Source of the DNA: a bacterium
GTDB lineage: Bacteria > Orphanbacterota > Orphanbacteria > JBJXGV01
Assembly (NCBI GenBank): GCA_046160485.1
Contig: JBJXGV010000063.1
Coordinates: forward strand, 19,326 to 83,325
DNA: 64,000 bases
Direction of reading: 5' to 3'
Positions within the stretch are counted from its first letter, which is position 1. Every line of letters begins with the position of its first letter. Shown here in pieces: positions 19,081 to 33,123 of this stretch. The notes under the pieces were generated by a model. That model worked only from the letters and a program-made list of their open reading frames with translations. It had not been told where the DNA came from and searched no databases. A program made the translations under genes and the position numbers.

Positions 19081-19269
19081 GTGCCTGAGGACTCCGTTCG
19101 CTGCCGCGCCTGCGGCGCGATGACGCCCGACGAAAACCTGCGCTGCATCTTCTGCGGCGAACTTCTCGCCGCCCGCAGCGGTGCTCTCGGCCGGCTCCGC
19201 TACGGAACCGTCACCCGTTGGGTCGTCGCCGTGGTCGCCCTCTACCTCGTGTGGCGGCTCTTCTCTTAG
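19081..19269 (+). CDS. small zinc-ribbon protein with C-terminal TM helix
   Basis: 62 aa, CRAC...CIFC plus hydrophobic tail. GTG start 10 nt after nuoN stop. Confidence 0.35.
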   Translation: MPEDSVRCRACGAMTPDENLRCIFCGELLAARSGALGRLRYGTVTRWVVAVVALYLVWRLFS

Positions 19270-19290: not shown

Positions 19291-19346
19291 TTGACGCGTC
19301 CCGTCCGCGCAGCGTAATCTCCAACCATGACCTATACGTCATGGTT
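19291..19346 (+). promoter_or_regulatory. candidate promoter (TTGACG-18-TAATCT) followed by a perfect 9-bp inverted repeat AACCATGAC-CTATAC-GTCATGGTT
   Basis: Seen directly: -35 at 19291-19296, -10 at 19315-19320, palindrome at 19323-19346, upstream of the MerR-like gene. Confidence 0.4.
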
Positions 19347-19397
19347 CACGGTTTTGCTGCGCGGGGCCAGCGCACTCGGCACGGTGAGGCGCGTCGA

Positions 19398-19973
19398 ATG
19401 AGAGACGGCGCCGAAAGCCTCCGCATCGGAGAGCTGGCCGCGCGCTCGGGCAAGACGATCCGCGCGCTCCACCTTTACGAGCAGATGGGGCTGCTGCCGG
19501 CCGCCGAACGGTCCGAGTGCGGCTACCGCCTCTTCCGCAGCGACGCGCCCGTCCGAATCGAGTGGATCGACGCGCTTCAATCGCTCGGCTTGTCCCTCGC
19601 CGAGATTCGCGAGTTCGATCTCGAGTTCGAGCGCCGGACGCTGGGGCCGCAGGCCGCCGCGCTCGCGCGGAAGCGATTCAAGGAGAAACTCGTCGAAACG
19701 CGGCAGGCGATCGAACGGCTCCGAATGCTCGAATCGGAGTTGTGCGCGGCGCTCGAATACCTCGAGGCATGCCGCGGCTGCATTCCGCCTCAGCCCAGCG
19801 CCGTCTGCCCAGAGTGCGACGTGCCGCGCGAGAAGTCAGAGAAGCCGATTTTGATGAAGGGGTTCTATTCGAAGCCGGGCCCGCCGGCGACGCGGAGCGC
19901 AGCCGCGAAGAGTTCGACGGCCGGCTTTCGTATCGCGCAACGGCGGCGCCGCGCGCGCAAAGGAGCTTCATGA
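19398..19973 (+). CDS. MerR family transcriptional regulator with Cys-rich C-terminus
   Basis: ATG with GGTGAGG RBS. HTH LRIGELAARSGKTIRALHLYEQMGLL. C-terminal C-x8-C-x2-C-x9-C-x2-C. The ORF-track 5' extension from 19218 is probably not translated. Confidence 0.75.
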   Translation: MRDGAESLRIGELAARSGKTIRALHLYEQMGLLPAAERSECGYRLFRSDAPVRIEWIDALQSLGLSLAEIREFDLEFERRTLGPQAAALARKRFKEKLVETRQAIERLRMLESELCAALEYLEACRGCIPPQPSAVCPECDVPREKSEKPILMKGFYSKPGPPATRSAAAKSSTAGFRIAQRRRRARKGAS

Positions 19974-21022
19974 GCACCGCAACAAGCGAAGACCTGCTCA
20001 AGGAATTGAGCCGGATTACGGACACCTATCACAACGAGAACATCGTCGCGCTCGGGATCGTCAAAGAGGCGCGGGTCGAGGGCGCGCGCGCGCGCGTCCA
20101 CATCGAGCTGCCGACGCCGGCGTATCCGCTGCGCGAACGCTTCGAGGCCGAAGCACGAGCCCGCGCGGGCGCTCTCGCCGGCGTTGCGTCGGTCGACATC
20201 GAGTTCACGGCATCGGTCGCCACGCCGCCCGTCCTCCTCGGCAACGCGATGCCCGGCGTGAAGCACCCGATCGCCGTCGCCAGCGGCAAGGGAGGCGTCG
20301 GCAAGTCGACGGTCGCGGTCAATCTCGCCGTGGCTCTCGCCCAGTACGGCGCCGCCGTCGGCCTTCTCGACGCGGACATCTACGGTCCGTCGATTCCGAT
20401 CATGCTCGGCGAACGCCGGCAGCCGAAGCCCTCGCCCTCCGGAAAGATTCTCCCGCTCGAGCGCTACGGCGTTCGGATGATGTCGATCGGTTTCATCGCG
20501 ACCGGCGACACGCCGGTTATTTGGCGCGGCCCGCTCGTCTCGCGGATGCTGCAGCAGTTCCTCATGCAAGTGGAGTGGGGCGAACTCGATTACCTCATCA
20601 TCGATATGCCGCCGGGCACCGGTGACGCGCAACTCACCCTCTCGCAGCAGTGCCCGCTCTCGGGCGCTGTGGTCGTCACGACGCCGCAGGAAGTCGCGCT
20701 CGAAGATGTCTACCGAGCCGTGCAGATGTTCGGCCAGGTACGCGTACCGATTCTCGGAATCGTCGAGAACATGAGCGGGTTCGCATGCCCGCACTGCGGC
20801 GAGGTGACCTCCGTGTTCCGTTCAGGCGGCGGCGCCGCGGCCGCGGAGAAGTCGGGCGTCCCGCTCCTCGGGCGCATCCCGCTCGATCCGGCAATCTGCG
20901 ACGGCGGCGATGCCGGCGCGCCGATCGTGGCCGCACACCCCGAGAGTCCGCAATCCGCCGGCTTCCGCAAGATCGCCGGCGAAGTCGCCGCGCAGCTCGC
21001 CGTTATGTCGCGCGCCGGTTAA
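19970..21022 (+). CDS. apbC: Fe-S cluster carrier ATPase Mrp/ApbC
   Basis: ATGA overlap with the MerR stop. N-terminal DUF59/MIP18-like domain, Walker A GKGGVGKST, CPHCGE CxxC. Confidence 0.9.
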   Translation: MSTATSEDLLKELSRITDTYHNENIVALGIVKEARVEGARARVHIELPTPAYPLRERFEAEARARAGALAGVASVDIEFTASVATPPVLLGNAMPGVKHPIAVASGKGGVGKSTVAVNLAVALAQYGAAVGLLDADIYGPSIPIMLGERRQPKPSPSGKILPLERYGVRMMSIGFIATGDTPVIWRGPLVSRMLQQFLMQVEWGELDYLIIDMPPGTGDAQLTLSQQCPLSGAVVVTTPQEVALEDVYRAVQMFGQVRVPILGIVENMSGFACPHCGEVTSVFRSGGGAAAAEKSGVPLLGRIPLDPAICDGGDAGAPIVAAHPESPQSAGFRKIAGEVAAQLAVMSRAG

Positions 21023-21036
21023 AAAGGAGATTCGAA

Positions 21037-21897
21037 TTGGTTGCTAGCGCGTTTGCGATCGGCCTGAAACAAGATCACTCGCTCGGCGTCTACCTGCGCG
21101 AGATCGGCGAGTATCCGCTCCTGACTCCCGAAGAAGAACGCACGCTCGGGCGCAGGGTACGGACGAAGCAGGACAAGGCGGCGCTCGACCATCTCGTCAC
21201 TGCGAATCTGCGCTTCGTCGTTCACATCGCGAAGAAGTACGCCAATCGCGGCCTCTCGCTCGCGGATGTCATTCACGAGGGGAATCTCGGGCTGATCCGC
21301 GCGGCGGAGGGTTTCGATGAGCGCCGCGGCGTGCGATTCATCTCGTACGCACAGTGGTGGATTCGCCAATGCATCCTGCTCGCGATCGCTAAGCAGTCGC
21401 GCATGATCCGGCTCCCGATGAACAAGCAGGGGACGCTGCACAAGGTCTACAAGGTCGGCGATCAGATGCGCAACACGCTAGGCCGCGAACCGAGCCACGC
21501 GGAGGTCGCGGAGGCGATGAACATTCCGGAGAACGAGCTGTTGGAGACGATGAACCTCTCGACGTTCCATCTTTCGCTCGACGCGGGCGAGTCGTCCGAC
21601 GGCGAGCAGTCGCTCGCGAACGTCATCGCGGACGAGAGCGTCCCGCTTCCCGATGACCGCCTCATCGACGAGAGCATGCGATGGGATGTTCAGCGCGCGA
21701 TCGAGCTTTTGACCCCGCGCGAGTCGGAGATCCTTCGGCTCTATTACGGCGTCGGGTGCGATCGCCCCCACACGCTCGAGGAGATCGGAGCGGTGCACCG
21801 CCTCTCGAAAGAGCGAGTGCGGCAGCTCAAGGAGCGCGCGCTCCAGCGTCTTGCCCGCGGCGCGGACGCGAAGAAACTCCAGTCCTACCTGAACTGA
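21037..21897 (+). CDS. RNA polymerase sigma-70 family factor (regions 1.2-4; short RpoD/RpoS-like)
   Basis: TTG start 14 nt after apbC stop, preceded by AAAGGAGA. Conserved regions 2 (TANLRFVVHIAKKY, region 2.2-like), 3 and 4 (LTPRESEILRLYYG). Confidence 0.8.
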   Translation: MVASAFAIGLKQDHSLGVYLREIGEYPLLTPEEERTLGRRVRTKQDKAALDHLVTANLRFVVHIAKKYANRGLSLADVIHEGNLGLIRAAEGFDERRGVRFISYAQWWIRQCILLAIAKQSRMIRLPMNKQGTLHKVYKVGDQMRNTLGREPSHAEVAEAMNIPENELLETMNLSTFHLSLDAGESSDGEQSLANVIADESVPLPDDRLIDESMRWDVQRAIELLTPRESEILRLYYGVGCDRPHTLEEIGAVHRLSKERVRQLKERALQRLARGADAKKLQSYLN

Positions 21898-22012
21898 CAA
21901 AAAAACACTAATTCTCGCCGTCTAATCGCGTGTGCTAGACTCGACGCGATTTCGAACTGTTTCTGCAACGCAACTCGTCTTCGAAAACCGAACCGGCTGT
22001 GCAGGCGGCCGC

Positions 22013-23932
22013 ATGAGGTCCCCGATGCGAACGAGCGCGACTGCAACTCAGTGCTTTTGCGCCCCGACGCGACGCCGCGCTCTTTGGCGCACTGCGTTCT
22101 GCGTGGGTAGCGCCTCCCTTTGCGCGCTCGCAACGCCACTGCCCACCCTCGCGCTGAACTTCACCAACGTCACGTCTGCGGCCGGATTCATCTACGCCCA
22201 CGGCTACAGCGGCCCTGTCGGGGAGGCGCGCCTCTCGGCCGGCGGCGTCGCGGTCGGCGACTACGATCGGGACGGTTGGGAAGACGTTTACGTCGTGCGC
22301 GGCAATATCGGGCCCAACCTGCTCTTTCGCAATCTCGGCAACGGCACGTTCCAGGAGGTCGGCGCGTCCGCCGGCGTCAACATCAGCGGCGCGTACGGGT
22401 CTGGCCCCACGTTCGGCGACTACGACGGCGACGGCTGGCTCGACTTGATCATTGGCGGGGCGGATCCGACGCAGCCGCGTCTCTTCCGCAACTTGGGCAC
22501 CGGCGCGTTCGCTGATGTCACCCCGACCTGCGGCATCAGCACACTGATGAACACCTTCTCGTGCACCTACGGCGACTACGACATCGACGGCGACCTCGAT
22601 CTCTTCCTGACGCACTGGGGACCGATCGGAAGCCCCGACCATCTTTGGCGCAACAACGGCAACGGATCCTTCACGTCGGTCGACTGGGACGCTGGCCTTT
22701 CGATCCTCGGAGACGAAGGCGCCGACTACTCGTACACGGGAAACTTCGCGGACATCAACGACGATGGTTTTCCGGATTTGCTCGTCGCGGCGGACTTCGA
22801 GCGCTCGAAGGTATTCATCAACGACGGCGACGGGACGTTCACGAACGTGACCACCGGCGTGATCTCCGACGAAAACGGAATGGGCGGCGCGGTCGGCGAC
22901 TACGATAACGACGGCGACCTCGATTGGTTCGTATCGAGCATTTGGGATCCGAACGGCGTGCCGGAGGGGAGCTGGGGCATCACCGGCAACCGGCTCTACC
23001 GTAACGCGGGCGGCGGCGTTTTCCAGGATGTCACCACGGCGACGGGCGTGCGCCAGGGATACTGGGGCTGGGGCTCGAGTTTCGCCGACTTCAACAACGA
23101 CGGGCACCTCGATCTCGTTCACGTGAACGGATGGAACGCGCTCGAATTCGAGCGCGACTCGACGCGGGTTTTTATCTCCGGCGGTGACGCGACGTTCACC
23201 GAGCAGTCGTACGTGCTTGGCGTGCGCGACGTCGGGCAGGGGCGCGGCGTGGCGTGTTTCGATTACGACCGCGACGGCGATCTCGACATTTTCATCGCGA
23301 ACAACGGTTCGGCGCCGTTGTTCTATCGAAACGACGGCGGCAACGCGCTCAAGTATCTGAGCGTCCGCCTCGCGGGGCCGTCGCCGAATACCGAGGGAAT
23401 CGGCGCGAGGGTTTTCGTGACGGCGGGCGGCGTCACGCAGATGCGCGAGATTCGCTGCGGCAGCAACTACGTCTCCCAGGATCCGGCGGTCGCGCACTTC
23501 GGACTCGGTTCCGCGACGCTCGTCAGCGAGCTTCGCGTCGAGTGGCCGGATGGCGTGACGACGGTGCTCAACGGCCTCGCGCCGAATCAACGCCTCGTGC
23601 TCGATCAAAACGTAACCGGCGTTTCTCCGGGCTCCGGTTCCACCCCTTTGGGATCGGCGTTTGAACTCGTCGGAGGTGCGCCCAACCCCTTCGGCGCCTC
23701 GACCACGATCCGGTTCCGGTTGCCGCACCGCGCCGACGTTTCGCTTCGCGTCTATTCGCTCGCCGGCCGGCATGTGGCGACGCTCGTCGACGAGTCGCGC
23801 GAGCCCGGCGAGCACGGCGTCGACTGGGACGGACGCGATGGCGCGGGTCGCCTTGCCGCCGCCGGGCCGTACGTCGTGCGCCTCGAGTCTGCTGCGGGCG
23901 CCGTCTCAACACGCCTCATCCTCGCTCGCTAG
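22013..23932 (+). CDS. secreted FG-GAP/VCBS-type repeat protein (CRTAC1/ASPIC-UnbV-like) with C-terminal T9SS-CTD / FlgD-Ig-like domain
   Basis: Signal peptide. Repeated GDYDxDGxxD calcium-binding propeller motifs. C-terminal about 85 aa (PNPF...WDGRD...) homologous to the C-terminus of the 61270..63492 protein. Start is uncertain (22013 or 22025). Confidence 0.75.
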   Translation: MRSPMRTSATATQCFCAPTRRRALWRTAFCVGSASLCALATPLPTLALNFTNVTSAAGFIYAHGYSGPVGEARLSAGGVAVGDYDRDGWEDVYVVRGNIGPNLLFRNLGNGTFQEVGASAGVNISGAYGSGPTFGDYDGDGWLDLIIGGADPTQPRLFRNLGTGAFADVTPTCGISTLMNTFSCTYGDYDIDGDLDLFLTHWGPIGSPDHLWRNNGNGSFTSVDWDAGLSILGDEGADYSYTGNFADINDDGFPDLLVAADFERSKVFINDGDGTFTNVTTGVISDENGMGGAVGDYDNDGDLDWFVSSIWDPNGVPEGSWGITGNRLYRNAGGGVFQDVTTATGVRQGYWGWGSSFADFNNDGHLDLVHVNGWNALEFERDSTRVFISGGDATFTEQSYVLGVRDVGQGRGVACFDYDRDGDLDIFIANNGSAPLFYRNDGGNALKYLSVRLAGPSPNTEGIGARVFVTAGGVTQMREIRCGSNYVSQDPAVAHFGLGSATLVSELRVEWPDGVTTVLNGLAPNQRLVLDQNVTGVSPGSGSTPLGSAFELVGGAPNPFGASTTIRFRLPHRADVSLRVYSLAGRHVATLVDESREPGEHGVDWDGRDGAGRLAAAGPYVVRLESAAGAVSTRLILAR

Positions 23933-23949: not shown

Positions 23950-24735
23950 TTGTCCGCGCGGCGCCGAGTCGAAGTTTCCGCAGGCGTCATCGAACGCGGC
24001 GGACGGATTCTCATCGCGCAGCGGCGTCCCGGCGATCACCTCGCACTCAACTGGGAATTCCCAGGGGGCAAGCGAAAGCATGGCGAGAGTTGGGAGGACT
24101 GCCTTCGCCGCGAGCTCCTCGAGGAGATCGGCGTCGAGGTGGCGGTGGGGGCATGGCTCGACGCGGTGACGCACGCGTACGACGACCGCGATGTCCATCT
24201 GCGTTTCTTTCGATGCCGAATCACGCGCGGAACGCCGGCGTCTCTCGACTGCCACGACGTTCGCTGGGTCGCGCCGTGTGAGCTTGCGAATTTCGAATTC
24301 CCCGAGGCAGACGCGGCACTCGTGCGCTGGCTTTCGGCGTCACGCACACAGACGAGCGTCCCGGCGAGCTTGACGATCGAGCCGCGGGGCGGCGAATCGG
24401 CGGCGGTGGCGGAAGCGGTCGACGTGCGATGGGGAACGCAGCTCGACGAAGCCATGGCGCGTTGCGGTGTCCGGTCGCGAATGGGTTGCGGGGCCGGGCT
24501 GTGCGGCGCATGCGCGGTCGATGTCGTCGCGGGCGCCGCCAATCTCACGCCGCCGACCGCGGAGGAGCGCGCGTGGTTCGCGCCCGACGCGGCGAGCACG
24601 ACCCGGCCGAGCGATCCGCGCGATCCGCGAACAGCGTCCGAGGTCGCGCGTGTCGGCCGGCGCCTTGCGTGTCAGGCGCGCATCACAGGGAACATCGTCC
24701 TTGCGCTTAAGGAGCGCTCGCTTCTTCACTTCTAG
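23950..24735 (+). CDS. Nudix hydrolase (MutT-like) fused to C-terminal [2Fe-2S] ferredoxin-like domain
   Basis: Nudix box GGKRKHGESWEDCLRRELLEEIGV. C-terminal CGAGLCGACAV...LACQARI plant-type ferredoxin Cys pattern. TTG start at 23950 is the ORF-track start; start is uncertain. Confidence 0.7.
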   Translation: MSARRRVEVSAGVIERGGRILIAQRRPGDHLALNWEFPGGKRKHGESWEDCLRRELLEEIGVEVAVGAWLDAVTHAYDDRDVHLRFFRCRITRGTPASLDCHDVRWVAPCELANFEFPEADAALVRWLSASRTQTSVPASLTIEPRGGESAAVAEAVDVRWGTQLDEAMARCGVRSRMGCGAGLCGACAVDVVAGAANLTPPTAEERAWFAPDAASTTRPSDPRDPRTASEVARVGRRLACQARITGNIVLALKERSLLHF

Positions 24736-27036: not shown

Positions 27037-27363
27037 CTATGCGCTAAACGAACTCCCGCAGCCGCATTTCCCGCTCGAGTTCGGATTCTCGATCTTGAAT
27101 CCCGCGCCGTGAAGGCCTTCGACGTAGTCGATCTTCGAACCGATCAGGTAGTTGAGGCTCATCGGATCGACGACCAGGCTGAAGCCGAACGTCTCTTGCG
27201 GATAGACCTCGTCATCGTCCTTCAGGTCGTCGAACGCGAAACCGTACTGGAATCCCGCGCACCCGCCGCCTTCGACGTAGATGCGGAGATTCCGCTGATC
27301 GGGCTTCTCTTCGTCGAGGATTTCCTTGATCTTCAGAGCGGCCGTTTCGGTGATCATCACCAT
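27037..27363 (-). CDS. A-type Fe-S cluster insertion/carrier protein (IscA/ErpA/SufA family)
   Basis: 108 aa. GGGCAGFQY and C-terminal GKCGCGSSF. GAAGGTGG RBS. The ORF-track 262-aa form has an Arg-rich spurious extension. Confidence 0.85.
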   Translation of the reverse strand: MVMITETAALKIKEILDEEKPDQRNLRIYVEGGGCAGFQYGFAFDDLKDDDEVYPQETFGFSLVVDPMSLNYLIGSKIDYVEGLHGAGFKIENPNSSGKCGCGSSFSA

Positions 27364-27398
27364 GCTTATCCACCTTCTTTCTTCAAGATGCCCCGCGC

Positions 27399-28361
27399 CT
27401 ACTGCGACGCGTGAATCTGGTAGCTCCAACCGAGGTCGCGCGGGAACTCCTGCGCTCTCGGCACAATGATCGCCTCTTTGATGCAGACTTGCTCGCAAAG
27501 TTTGCAAGAGACGCACTTTTTCTCGTCGACCACCGCGAGCTTCGTCACGAACGAAAGCGGATCGTTCGTGTCGACGAGCGAGATGCAATCGAACGGGCAA
27601 ACATCGACGCAGTACGCGCAGCCCGTACAGAGTTCGTCGATCACGACCGCCTTCGGGATTTCCTTCGCCTTGATGCGCTCGACGAGCACGGAGCGCTGAT
27701 CGACGATGCAGTCGTACGGGCAGTACACACCGCAGACGCTGCAATTGATGCAGAGGTTCGGGTCGATGATGTAGCGCTCTTTCTTTAGCCCCGTGATCGC
27801 TTTCGTCGGGCACTTGATGTCGCACACGCCGCAGCCGACGCAGTTCTCGAGGATGTAATGCGCGTCCCAGAGCGGCGTTTCGTTCAGCACGATTCCCGCC
27901 GGCAGAGCGCGGATGACGAGTACGTCGCCGATGTAGCGGTGGAAGTACTCGCCGATCTCCTCCTCGAACGCGAAGCGCGTCGTAAACGTGCGCGGGAAAC
28001 TGAGCGTCCCGCCGCAGAGCGAGAGAATCTTTTCATCGTCCGGCGCCGTCGCGGAGACCTTGAGCACGCGACCCTCGACGAGTTCGATTTCGTACCTGTA
28101 CGCGGGCATTCTGTCGGGCAGCCCGAGCATGAACTTCTGCGGGCAATTCGGAATTTTCTCGGGGAACCAGAGGCGGATCATGTACTCGTTGCCGCTGCGC
28201 TCGATCGTGTGGACGAGCCCGTAGCGCTTGTTGCGCTCCGTCAACTCCTCGACGTCATCCTTGTGGCGCGCCCACGCCAGCTCCCATCCCGGCGCGCCGT
28301 CGTCGAGTGCGGTCCCAGCGTCGCCGGCTACCGCGGCATTCTTGGTCGCATCGTCGGCCAT
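27399..28361 (-). CDS. ferredoxin-domain protein: unassigned (possibly Hsp20/alpha-crystallin-like) N-terminal domain + four CxxCxxCxxxCP 4Fe-4S motifs
   Basis: CVGCGVCDIKCP, CINCSVCGVYCP, CTGCAYCVDVCP, CVSCKLCEQVC. The N-terminal 160 aa is not matched to a known catalytic family. Confidence 0.75.
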   Translation of the reverse strand: MADDATKNAAVAGDAGTALDDGAPGWELAWARHKDDVEELTERNKRYGLVHTIERSGNEYMIRLWFPEKIPNCPQKFMLGLPDRMPAYRYEIELVEGRVLKVSATAPDDEKILSLCGGTLSFPRTFTTRFAFEEEIGEYFHRYIGDVLVIRALPAGIVLNETPLWDAHYILENCVGCGVCDIKCPTKAITGLKKERYIIDPNLCINCSVCGVYCPYDCIVDQRSVLVERIKAKEIPKAVVIDELCTGCAYCVDVCPFDCISLVDTNDPLSFVTKLAVVDEKKCVSCKLCEQVCIKEAIIVPRAQEFPRDLGWSYQIHASQ

Positions 28362-31897: not shown

Positions 31898-32178
31898 CGC
31901 GGTGTCCCGTCACATTGTCTTCTGTTCGCTGACAAATCGGCGAACTTACACGGAGCCTCGCGCAATCCCGAGTTGTTCGCGTTGCGCGCACACGCGCACA
32001 CGCGCTTACGGCTGCACCCGTTGTGGCATGCGCCTTGCCGATGCGTTGTCGTAAGACCCGGTGAAGTCGCGGGAACCCACGAAAAGAACCCGGAAACTCG
32101 CGACGAGCAACGGGAACTTCAAAGGTACCGAAGGGGTAGTTGGAGCACATAAACCCCAGAACAAGGAGCGATCAGCAA

Positions 32179-33123
32179 ATGGTAGGTGCAGCGGCGGCCA
32201 TGCGGGTTCAGGAAGAACGCGAAGACGCGATCGAAACGAAGCGCGCCCCCAAGGTTGACACCGTCCCGAGCGTTGTTAAGAACGACAATTCCGACATCGG
32301 TTCGCTCGGCATTTATTTCAGAGACATCGGCCGGATCAACCTGCTCACGAAGGAAGAAGAGGTTCAGCTCGCACGGCGGGTTCGCCGGGGCGACTCCGAG
32401 GCGCTCACGCGTCTCGTCACGGCGAACCTGCGTTTCGTAGTCAGCGTCGCCAAGCGCTACGTCGGCCTCGGTCTCTCGCTCGAAGATCTCGTGGCCGAGG
32501 GCAACGTCGGCATCATTCGCGCGGCGCGGAAGTTCGACGACCGCCGAGGCGTACGGTTCCTCTCGTACGGCGTCTGGTGGATCAAGCAGGCGATGCTTCA
32601 GGCGCTCGCGGAGCAGGTGCCCGTCGTGCGAATCCCGCTTAATCGCAATGGCCTCATGCACAAGCTTCAGAAGACCGCTGACCAGCTCCGCAAGGCGCTC
32701 GAACGCGAGCCGACGTACTCCGAAATTGCGAAGGCCGTTTCGCTCTCGGAAGACGAGGTCGCGAATACCATGGAGCTGACGCGCAGCTACCTGTCGCTCG
32801 ACGGCGGCCCCGAGAGCGACGACGACGCGGTCGGACTCATGGAGTTCATCGAGGACTCTTCGGCGGTGTCCCCGGACGAACGCGTGGCGCGCGCGAATCT
32901 GCGCGAGGATCTCATGGCGGCGATCGACGAACTCCCCCCGCGCGAGGCCGAGGTGCTGCGGCTCTACTACGGCTTCGGGCTCCGCGAGGGAAAGACCCTC
33001 GAAGAGATCGGCGATCGGTTCCACCTTTCGCGCGAACGCATTCGTCAGATCAAGGAAGTGGCGATTCGGCGCCTTCGCGGCGGCGCGAAGGGACAAGCGC
33101 TCGAGTCGTATCTCGCCGGCTAA
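32179..33123 (+). CDS. RNA polymerase sigma-70 family factor, paralog of 21037..21897
   Basis: ATG with AGGAG RBS. TANLRFVVSVAKRY, GNVGIIRAARKFD, LPPREAEVLRLYYG. Alternative TTG start at 32140. Confidence 0.8.
   Translation: MVGAAAAMRVQEEREDAIETKRAPKVDTVPSVVKNDNSDIGSLGIYFRDIGRINLLTKEEEVQLARRVRRGDSEALTRLVTANLRFVVSVAKRYVGLGLSLEDLVAEGNVGIIRAARKFDDRRGVRFLSYGVWWIKQAMLQALAEQVPVVRIPLNRNGLMHKLQKTADQLRKALEREPTYSEIAKAVSLSEDEVANTMELTRSYLSLDGGPESDDDAVGLMEFIEDSSAVSPDERVARANLREDLMAAIDELPPREAEVLRLYYGFGLREGKTLEEIGDRFHLSRERIRQIKEVAIRRLRGGAKGQALESYLAG

Follow-up and report, generated by a model that had tools for sequence, protein, structure and literature searches.

What does a MerR-family regulator control when its gene stands immediately before those of an iron-sulfur carrier and a sigma factor, and what does it sense? 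This question is raised by positions 19398-21897 of a 64,000-nucleotide (nt) stretch of bacterial DNA (contig JBJXGV010000063.1; the whole stretch is referred to here as the window), where a MerR-type gene is followed by genes for an ApbC/Mrp-type iron-sulfur carrier ATPase and a sigma-70 family factor. A preliminary description of this DNA had suggested an uncharacterised iron-sulfur or redox stress regulatory module, and our analysis supports such a module through the invariant cysteines of the regulator, a gene order conserved in the window's clade and relatives of the regulator that head isc and suf operons in other phyla. We hold with moderate confidence that the regulator is an autoregulated iron-sulfur-status sensor and repressor of merR-apbC-sigma, a MerR-scaffold counterpart of IscR or SufR in function, a reading drawn from context, conservation and analogy with IscR, RisR, SufR and SoxR (PMC9973013, PMC11672702).

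The three-gene unit and its promoter

The features of the unit are as follows.

19291..19296, + strand: -35-like hexamer TTGACG, read from the sequence and supported by clade conservation
19315..19320, + strand: -10-like hexamer TAATCT, with an 18-bp spacer from TTGACG, supported by clade conservation
19324..19345, no strand assigned: putative operator, a perfect 8+6+8 palindrome ACCATGAC-CTATAC-GTCATGGT, supported by its uniqueness in the window and by clade conservation
19398..19973, + strand: MerR-family regulator of 191 amino acids (aa), ATG start and TGA stop, identified with Pfam
19770..19817, + strand: candidate sensor module C125-RG-C128-IPPQPSAV-C137-PE-C140, taken from invariant alignment columns and placed directly after the dimerisation helix
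19970..21022, + strand: ApbC/Mrp-type iron-sulfur carrier ATPase of 350 aa, ATG start and TAA stop, identified with Pfam
21037..21897, + strand: sigma-70 family factor of 286 aa, TTG start and TGA stop, with Pfam regions 1.2, 2, 3 and 4 and no region 1.1

The tight packing reported previously is borne out by the sequence, with all three genes on the + strand at these coordinates. The MerR stop and the ApbC start share an ATGA (4-nt overlap) that is preceded by a ribosome-binding site AAGGAG at 19960-19965, and the 14 nt separating the ApbC and sigma genes hold a second AAGGAG at 21024-21029. Between 19398 and 21897 a generic scan for promoters and terminators detected neither a promoter nor a terminator on the + strand; the merR, apbC and sigma genes are probably co-transcribed.

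The first gene's product matches the Pfam families MerR_1 (1.4e-11), MerR (6.6e-11) and MerR-DNA-bind (3.3e-07; 31.3 bits against a cut-off of 25.4), and a MerR-type helix-turn-helix (HTH) and wing domain is present at residues 9-72 (MerR_1 44.7 bits, cut-off 21.6; MerR 42.3 bits, cut-off 28.2). The second protein carries all three hallmarks of ApbC/Mrp carriers, namely a deviant Walker A motif GKGGVGKS at residue 106 (20285-20308), a CxxC motif (CPHC at residue 273, 20786-20797) and an N-terminal DUF59-type domain (FeS_assembly_P, PF01883, 2e-11, 44.4 bits) ahead of its ParA/NUBPL domain (PF10609, 2.6e-102, 341.9 bits); it scores 322.9 bits against the NCBIfam ApbC equivalog, slightly short of the cut-off of 348. 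The sigma factor exceeds the Pfam cut-offs for PF00140, PF04542, PF04539 and PF04545. None of the three proteins reaches an equivalog cut-off in NCBIfam, and an Rfam scan of the whole window returned no RNA family.

Relatives of the regulator head iron-sulfur operons

In a search of 5.8 billion proteins we found an identical regulator in an NCBI metagenome-assembled genome (MAG) and about 25 full-length relatives with 41-87% identity to it. When 1.84 billion representatives, clustered at 50% identity, were searched with a profile, 189 of them matched at E<=1e-30, compared with 9,293 for generic MerR proteins at E<=1e-10; a Polyangiaceae member used as query retrieved 3,806 clusters (90% identity) at E<=1e-20. 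The public names of those clusters are generic MerR family or 'copper efflux regulator', the latter label being wrong for members of this family, and we conclude that the regulator belongs to an unnamed MerR subfamily. A scan of one genome per species identified at least 518 loci with relatives, nearly all of them in Myxococcota MAGs (Polyangia, Sandaracinaceae and 'Myxococcales') or in Candidatus Eisenbacteria, of which the best 80 were used for downstream comparison.

Gene context was counted over 89 loci by clustering of neighbouring open reading frames (ORFs), with a Pfam check of loci L012 and L076. An iron-sulfur assembly or carrier gene lies immediately downstream on the same strand in 87 of the 89, the remaining two ending at a contig edge. 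In 61 Myxococcota loci the regulator is followed, within about 50 nt and on the same strand, by an IscS-type desulfurase, IscU, IscA, HscB, HscA and a ferredoxin, in 19 Eisenbacteria loci by a SufA-like carrier, SufC, SufB and SufS, and in seven loci, which make up the window's clade, by ApbC. A first-gene position before isc or suf, with the operator at the regulator's own promoter, was found in 80/89 family loci. A rough neighbour-joining tree separates the ApbC clade, the suf clade and the isc clades. As the regulator heads iron-sulfur genes in every readable locus, it occupies the gene position of IscR, RisR or SufR, and since its relatives head the main iron-sulfur operons of hundreds of uncultured bacteria it probably senses iron-sulfur supply, as a type of sensor not described before.

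One Eisenbacteria MAG locus (L076, 7369-9798) was seen to carry an intein with a LAGLIDADG endonuclease domain in its SufB gene.

Gene order in the window's clade

The complete order MerR-ApbC-sigma recurs in L081, L082 and L083, which were retrieved via homologs of the MerR protein, and in L208 and L210, which were retrieved via homologs of the sigma factor. It is partly visible in L154, where nuoN, a small ORF, the operator, MerR and ApbC represent the left half of the clade arrangement. Identity to the window drops to 49% for the MerR protein and 63% for the sigma factor across the clade; the gap between the ApbC and sigma genes is 10-34 nt in the five complete loci and the 4-nt overlap of MerR and ApbC is shared by the window, L082 and L208. 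In these five loci the left flank is nuoM/N, often with a 65-aa ORF, and the right flank is a NUDIX(-Fer2) gene, with genes for an SDR, an M24 peptidase, an A-type carrier and a multi-Fer4 protein further downstream in L081, L208 and L210.

Conserved synteny had been named in the preliminary description as a point on which the module would stand or fall. The gene order is kept in every readable locus of the window's clade, whereas neither ApbC nor the sigma gene lies directly downstream of the regulator in any of the best 80 Myxococcota and Eisenbacteria loci, making the three-gene co-occurrence clade-specific. With a clade-wide order that is absent from the Zixibacteria example we examined, the unit is best described as a conserved, lineage-specific arrangement.

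A four-cysteine module after the dimerisation helix

The regulator is built from the HTH and wing, a long dimerisation helix (residues 83-124), a four-cysteine loop, a PxLxxG motif and a basic tail. The earlier account of five C-terminal cysteines quoted the string CAALEYLEACRGCIPPQPSAVCPEC, which is correct, as are the positions 116, 125, 128, 137 and 140, but in an alignment of close relatives only C125, C128, C137 and C140 are invariant, C116 being confined to the nearest ones, and we therefore treat the site as a four-cysteine site. A motif C-x2/3-C-x7-10-C-x2-C is present in 89/89 loci drawn from three collections, so that these four cysteines are indeed conserved among orthologs as the preliminary description required of its proposal. 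A strict form of the motif is found in 110 of the 150 best library representatives, the remainder being mostly truncated or having another linker length. We infer that the four cysteines ligate an iron-sulfur cluster.

Two further elements lie C-terminal to the cysteines. A histidine occurs 3-4 residues after the last cysteine in 74/82 isc- or suf-linked members, and a PxL(V/L/M)xG motif about 12 residues beyond the histidine position is found in 80/89 members from all three clades. The possibility that the C-terminal 50 residues are non-coding was rejected, as relatives share both PxLxxG, in which G155 is invariant, and the basic tail. No Pfam family scored above threshold on the isolated C-terminal segments of eight members.

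An AlphaFold2 monomer model built from 25 sequences has a mean predicted local distance difference test (pLDDT) score of 78.6, rising above 90 for residues 10-120 and lying at 88-96 in the helix 83-124, with the cysteine loop beginning at residue 125. Foldseek matches of the model are SoxR, CueR, CadR and BmrR, and sequence and fold searches of the PDB returned MerR, PbrR, CadR, CueR, SoxR, NmlR and BmrR, with the matches stopping at the end of the dimerisation helix.

A clade-conserved palindrome with repressor geometry

An upstream palindrome had been mentioned as a candidate binding site and does exist, as the 22-bp sequence ACCATGAC-N6-GTCATGGT at 19324-19345. It is present as a single copy in 64 kb at <=3 mismatches, against 0.05 expected by chance, and each of the six other clade loci has the same palindrome 5' of its MerR gene, as the sole copy at <=4 mismatches. 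Outside the window's clade the operator takes the form ACCCTTAC-N6-GTAAGGGT, and this homologous site, ACYCTYAC-N6-GTRAGRGT, is again found 5' of the MerR gene, in 89/91 loci. When a weight matrix derived from these sites was run over 806 kb of locus DNA it gave only four extra matches, each of them 59-159 nt upstream of a MerR gene. Judged from these comparisons, the palindrome is a predicted autoregulatory site of high specificity whose half-site has changed together with the clade. When metagenome contigs were scanned for the clade operator in its exact form, 120 loci came back, 119 of which were chance matches of unrelated composition and only one of which, L154, was a true site; no extra regulon member emerged from it.

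If transcription starts, as expected, a few nt past the -10 box, the putative operator would extend from about -3 to about +19. A layout of TTGACN, a 17/18-bp spacer, TAnnnT, 3-4 nt and the operator is seen in 8/9 window-clade loci, TTGAC(N) likewise being conserved in 8/9 with L210 as the exception. In the window the spacer is 18 bp and the palindrome begins 3 nt after the -10 box, compared with 17 bp and 4 nt in the other clade loci, and equivalent -10 hexamers (TAATCT, TAAAAT, TAGAAT or TACATT) lie 3-4 nt before the palindrome in L081, L082, L083, L154 and L208. The operon promoter was identified from this clade conservation and not from the generic scan, which missed it because the -10 box matches TATAAT at just 3/6 positions. 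In Eisenbacteria loci these elements follow one another in the same way, the -10 box and the operator being 8 nt apart, and in many Myxococcota loci the operator overlaps the -10 box by 2 nt.

An operator placed over the expected transcription start of a promoter with a normal spacer has the geometry of a steric repressor and not that of MerR-type activation, which uses a 19-20-bp spacer. The window palindrome does not lie inside such a spacer, and this counts against activation but not against membership of the MerR family. Repressor-type MerR proteins are known.

The palindrome is nested in a longer imperfect inverted repeat (19305-19364) with 30-nt arms that are 77% complementary; its outer arms, CCGCGCAGC and GCTGCGCGG, are seemingly unconserved in the clade alignment.

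The sigma factor and its paralog

The sigma factor scores about 220-245 bits against the RpoD and RpoS models of NCBIfam (cut-offs 354-572), with individual values of 220.6 bits for RpoD_Cterm (354), 230.9 for RpoS (378.7) and 158.9 for RpoH (323.1). A paralog of this sigma-70 factor that shares 52% identity with it is encoded 11 kb away at 32140-33123 (+), and both copies score alike against the RpoD and RpoS models and against short Zixibacteria sigma factors. These scores do not assign either copy a primary or an alternative role, and the earlier description of the MerR-linked copy as a dedicated sigma factor is unproven. Outside the clade the next-closest sigma factors are found in Zixibacteria at about 53% identity, and the one examined does not adjoin ApbC.

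Comparison with known regulators

IscR, RisR and SufR are cluster-binding repressors whose genes stand first in isc or suf operons (PMC9973013). The Rrf2 proteins IscR of Escherichia coli and RisR of Myxococcus xanthus are Cys-ligated sensors in this first-gene position that bind a palindrome at their own promoter and repress in the holo form (PMC9973013); members of the family described here hold exactly the same position. The folds are nevertheless unrelated, an Rrf2 winged helix as opposed to a MerR HTH plus coiled coil, and no Rrf2 domain was matched in Pfam or NCBIfam for the window regulator. IscR and RisR use three cysteines plus a histidine or aspartate where the present proteins have four cysteines, the RisR operator is TtGAC-N7-GTCC in place of ACYCTYAC-N6-GTRAGRGT, and their targets are isc or suf whereas in the window they are apbC and a sigma factor. 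In M. xanthus, RisR is the regulator in use and no regulator gene stands upstream of isc, and the study of that species makes no mention of a MerR-type regulator (PMC9973013). SufR of cyanobacteria and actinobacteria, a [4Fe-4S] repressor that heads suf operons (PMC9973013), resembles the Eisenbacteria members that head sufA/C/B/S, but it has an ArsR/DeoR-type DNA-binding domain, another cysteine spacing and no sequence relationship to the regulator studied here.

Among MerR proteins, SoxR has a loop able to hold a [2Fe-2S] cluster (PMC11672702) and shares with the window regulator its scaffold and the placement of a sensor loop after the dimerisation helix (2zhg, one of the best structural matches, E=9.9e-06). 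Its CIGCGCLSxxxC motif is however not found in the window regulator, which has CRGCIPPQPSAVCPEC and scores 44.7 bits on NCBIfam TIGR01950 against a cut-off of 116.9. SoxR senses redox-cycling agents and activates soxS via a 19-bp spacer, in contrast to the 17/18-bp spacer, the operator after the -10 box and the iron-sulfur assembly or delivery targets of the present family. The closest sequences over the HTH and dimerisation helix are MerR, PbrR, CadR, ZntR and CueR (4ua1 at 8.5e-19, 5gpe, 6jgf and 1q05), regulators of heavy metals whose 22-bp operators are of similar architecture, and in CueR and ZntR as in SoxR the sensing loop directly follows the dimerisation helix, where the cysteines of our regulator are found. 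Against the equivalogs for CueR, ZntR, CadR-PbrR and MerR it nonetheless reaches 42.6-50 bits where the cut-offs are 143-168, its loop motif differs, and it has no cysteine between residues 42 and 115, whereas in ZntR, MerR and CadR the dimerisation helix begins with one. Its gene has no efflux gene in the neighbourhood.

Proposed mechanism

In the mechanism we propose, the four cysteines, in the position of the metal-binding loop, would hold an iron-sulfur cluster that reports cellular iron-sulfur supply, and a dimer of the regulator would bind the 22-bp palindrome 3-4 nt past the -10 box of its own promoter. The cluster-loaded form, which is presumably the repressor, would block transcription of merR-apbC-sigma. 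When clusters are scarce or damaged, under iron limitation or exposure to oxidants, the apo regulator would leave the operator, and derepression would raise the levels of the regulator, the ApbC carrier and the sigma factor, the last of which could then carry the response to further promoters.

Alternative explanations

A number of observations weigh against the sensor-repressor reading. There are no isc or suf core genes in the 64-kb window, no second copy of the operator was found in the window (<=3-4 mismatches) or in six clade loci (<=4 mismatches), and the MerR-linked sigma may be simply a general sigma factor. In the window's clade the histidine after the last cysteine is replaced by VPRE(N/K), with 0/7 members retaining it (window 19818-19870), and the site of this clade may therefore differ from that of isc- or suf-linked members. 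The cysteine loop has a pLDDT of only 54-65, and as the AlphaFold2 monomer leaves it unresolved the model offers no geometry argument for a cluster over zinc; CxxC...CxxC is also a classic motif of structural zinc sites and zinc-thiolate switches, and its linker length varies. Finally, in about 14 Myxococcota loci a TAGGGT(T) directly follows the operator and would give a 19-bp spacer, and in about 12 Myxococcota loci a TTGA(C) does so (loci with one or the other include L002, L004, L005, L021, L030 and L033). These could serve as a -10 box that sets the spacer at 19 bp, as a third half-site or as a -35 box further downstream, and given the TAGGGT the mechanism may not be uniform, with activation possible for some of the family.

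The main rival to an iron-sulfur sensor is one in which the four cysteines bind zinc, either as a structural site or as a zinc-thiolate redox switch like RsrA or Hsp33 that responds to the oxidation of thiols instead of to the supply of clusters; if it were a switch, oxidants would lead to disulfides, loss of zinc, release of the operator and induction of the genes for iron-sulfur repair or delivery. A pair of CxxC elements joined by a linker of variable length is typical of zinc knuckles, two C-terminal segments have sub-threshold matches to Pfam zinc fingers, and the operator and context evidence fits zinc as well as it fits a cluster. Those matches are however inconsistent between members as well as below threshold, the histidine near the last cysteine of most isc- or suf-linked members suggests a ligand set more elaborate than a zinc knuckle, and the characterised regulators that head isc or suf all use an iron-sulfur cluster signal, which gives direct product feedback (PMC9973013). 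We consider zinc unlikely, and the other two alternatives are less likely still. It is rather improbable that there is no module beyond autoregulation, with apbC and a general-purpose sigma gene merely lying downstream in a compact genome and the sigma factor expressed mainly from an unrecognised promoter of its own. This would agree with the resemblance of the sigma factor to short sigma factors of about 284 aa labelled 'primary' by JGI in Zixibacteria and lineages like it, with its paralog 11 kb away and with the Zixibacteria ortholog that does not adjoin ApbC, but it leaves unexplained an order kept with 10-34-nt gaps in all clade loci examined, down to 63% sigma identity, and the lack of any promoter-like or terminator-like site between the genes in the window. 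Least probable in our view is a sensor of thiophilic metals (Zn, Cd, Cu or similar) that would activate iron-sulfur repair and delivery in the MerR manner when metals attack clusters. MerR, PbrR, CadR and CueR are the best solved-structure sequence matches, ZntR, CadR and CueR the best NCBIfam matches, some sources annotate members as 'copper efflux regulator' and a 19-bp spacer is possible in some Myxococcota loci; yet the equivalog scores are 45-50 bits against cut-offs of 117-168, the solved-structure matches stop before the cysteine loop, a metal efflux gene lies directly downstream of the regulator in 0/89 loci, and a 17/18-bp spacer with the operator past the -10 box in the window's clade is unlike promoter distortion.

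Neighbouring genes

Other iron-sulfur genes near the unit had been listed previously, and the following are present in the window as identified by domain search.

23950-24735, + strand: fusion of a MutT-like NUDIX domain and a 2Fe-2S ferredoxin (Fer2) domain
about 27049-27360, - strand: A-type iron-sulfur carrier with an Fe-S_biosyn domain
27399-28361, - strand: 319-aa protein with multiple 4Fe-4S ferredoxin (Fer4) domains

The NUDIX-Fer2 fusion is kept just 3' of the sigma gene in L081, L082, L083 and L210, L208 having the NUDIX part only, and the A-type carrier and multi-Fer4 pair (27037-28361, -) keeps its relative position in L081, L208 and L210. These genes are real, but none has a copy of the operator, and direct control of these neighbours by the regulator is consequently not supported.

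A protein with FG-GAP, ASPIC(UnbV) and FlgD-Ig repeats is encoded at 21932-23932 (+), between the sigma and NUDIX-Fer2 genes; it was seen only in the window among the loci read past the sigma gene and seems to have been added in this lineage to a gene order that is otherwise conserved. A 62-aa ORF (19081-19269, +) is located between nuoN and the promoter of the operon, with a zinc-ribbon-like CxxC...CxxC N-terminus and a C-terminal hydrophobic helix, a 65-aa counterpart of which is called in L081, L208 and L210, with tblastn finding one in L154. G+C content reaches 76% at positions 1-2000 of the window as compared with 61-71% elsewhere in it.

Implications

Control of iron-sulfur assembly is understood for few regulator types, namely IscR, RisR and SufR, and has been framed as the repeated recruitment of cysteine-bearing regulators, Rrf2 members and the ArsR-like SufR (PMC9973013). 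We found no MerR-type regulator of isc, suf or apbC in the full-text literature searched, whose incomplete coverage means that this absence is no proof, and a 2024 review of bacterial metal sensors that lists the known MerR subgroups includes no MerR-type isc or suf regulator. A sensor-repressor at the head of iron-sulfur genes and the MerR scaffold are both known; the novelty lies in the sensor motif and the operator, in a promoter layout of the repressor type and, for the window's lineage, in the link with ApbC and a sigma factor.

We put forward more tentatively, as a possibility that may well not hold, the wider idea that a MerR scaffold with C-x2-C-x8-C-x2-C serves as a master iron-sulfur sensor and is the third scaffold to head isc and suf operons, and that in the window's lineage it has been rewired to a sigma-70 factor and ApbC. 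Were this true, MerR would be a further DNA-binding scaffold recruited to iron-sulfur control, joining Rrf2 (IscR, RisR) and SufR as a master-sensor scaffold and being widespread in Polyangia-type Myxococcota and Eisenbacteria, and thousands of 'copper efflux regulator' annotations would need correcting. The operator is among the most tightly conserved and specific ones in our analysis, and the operator and regulator pair could be used for experiments or as biosensors. For the window's lineage, iron-sulfur status would be linked to sigma-factor dosage, for which the literature searched holds no example. It would directly set the levels of the sigma-70 factor and of ApbC, which may load the sensor itself, and would thereby create a feedback loop leading from the supply of clusters into a sigma cascade.

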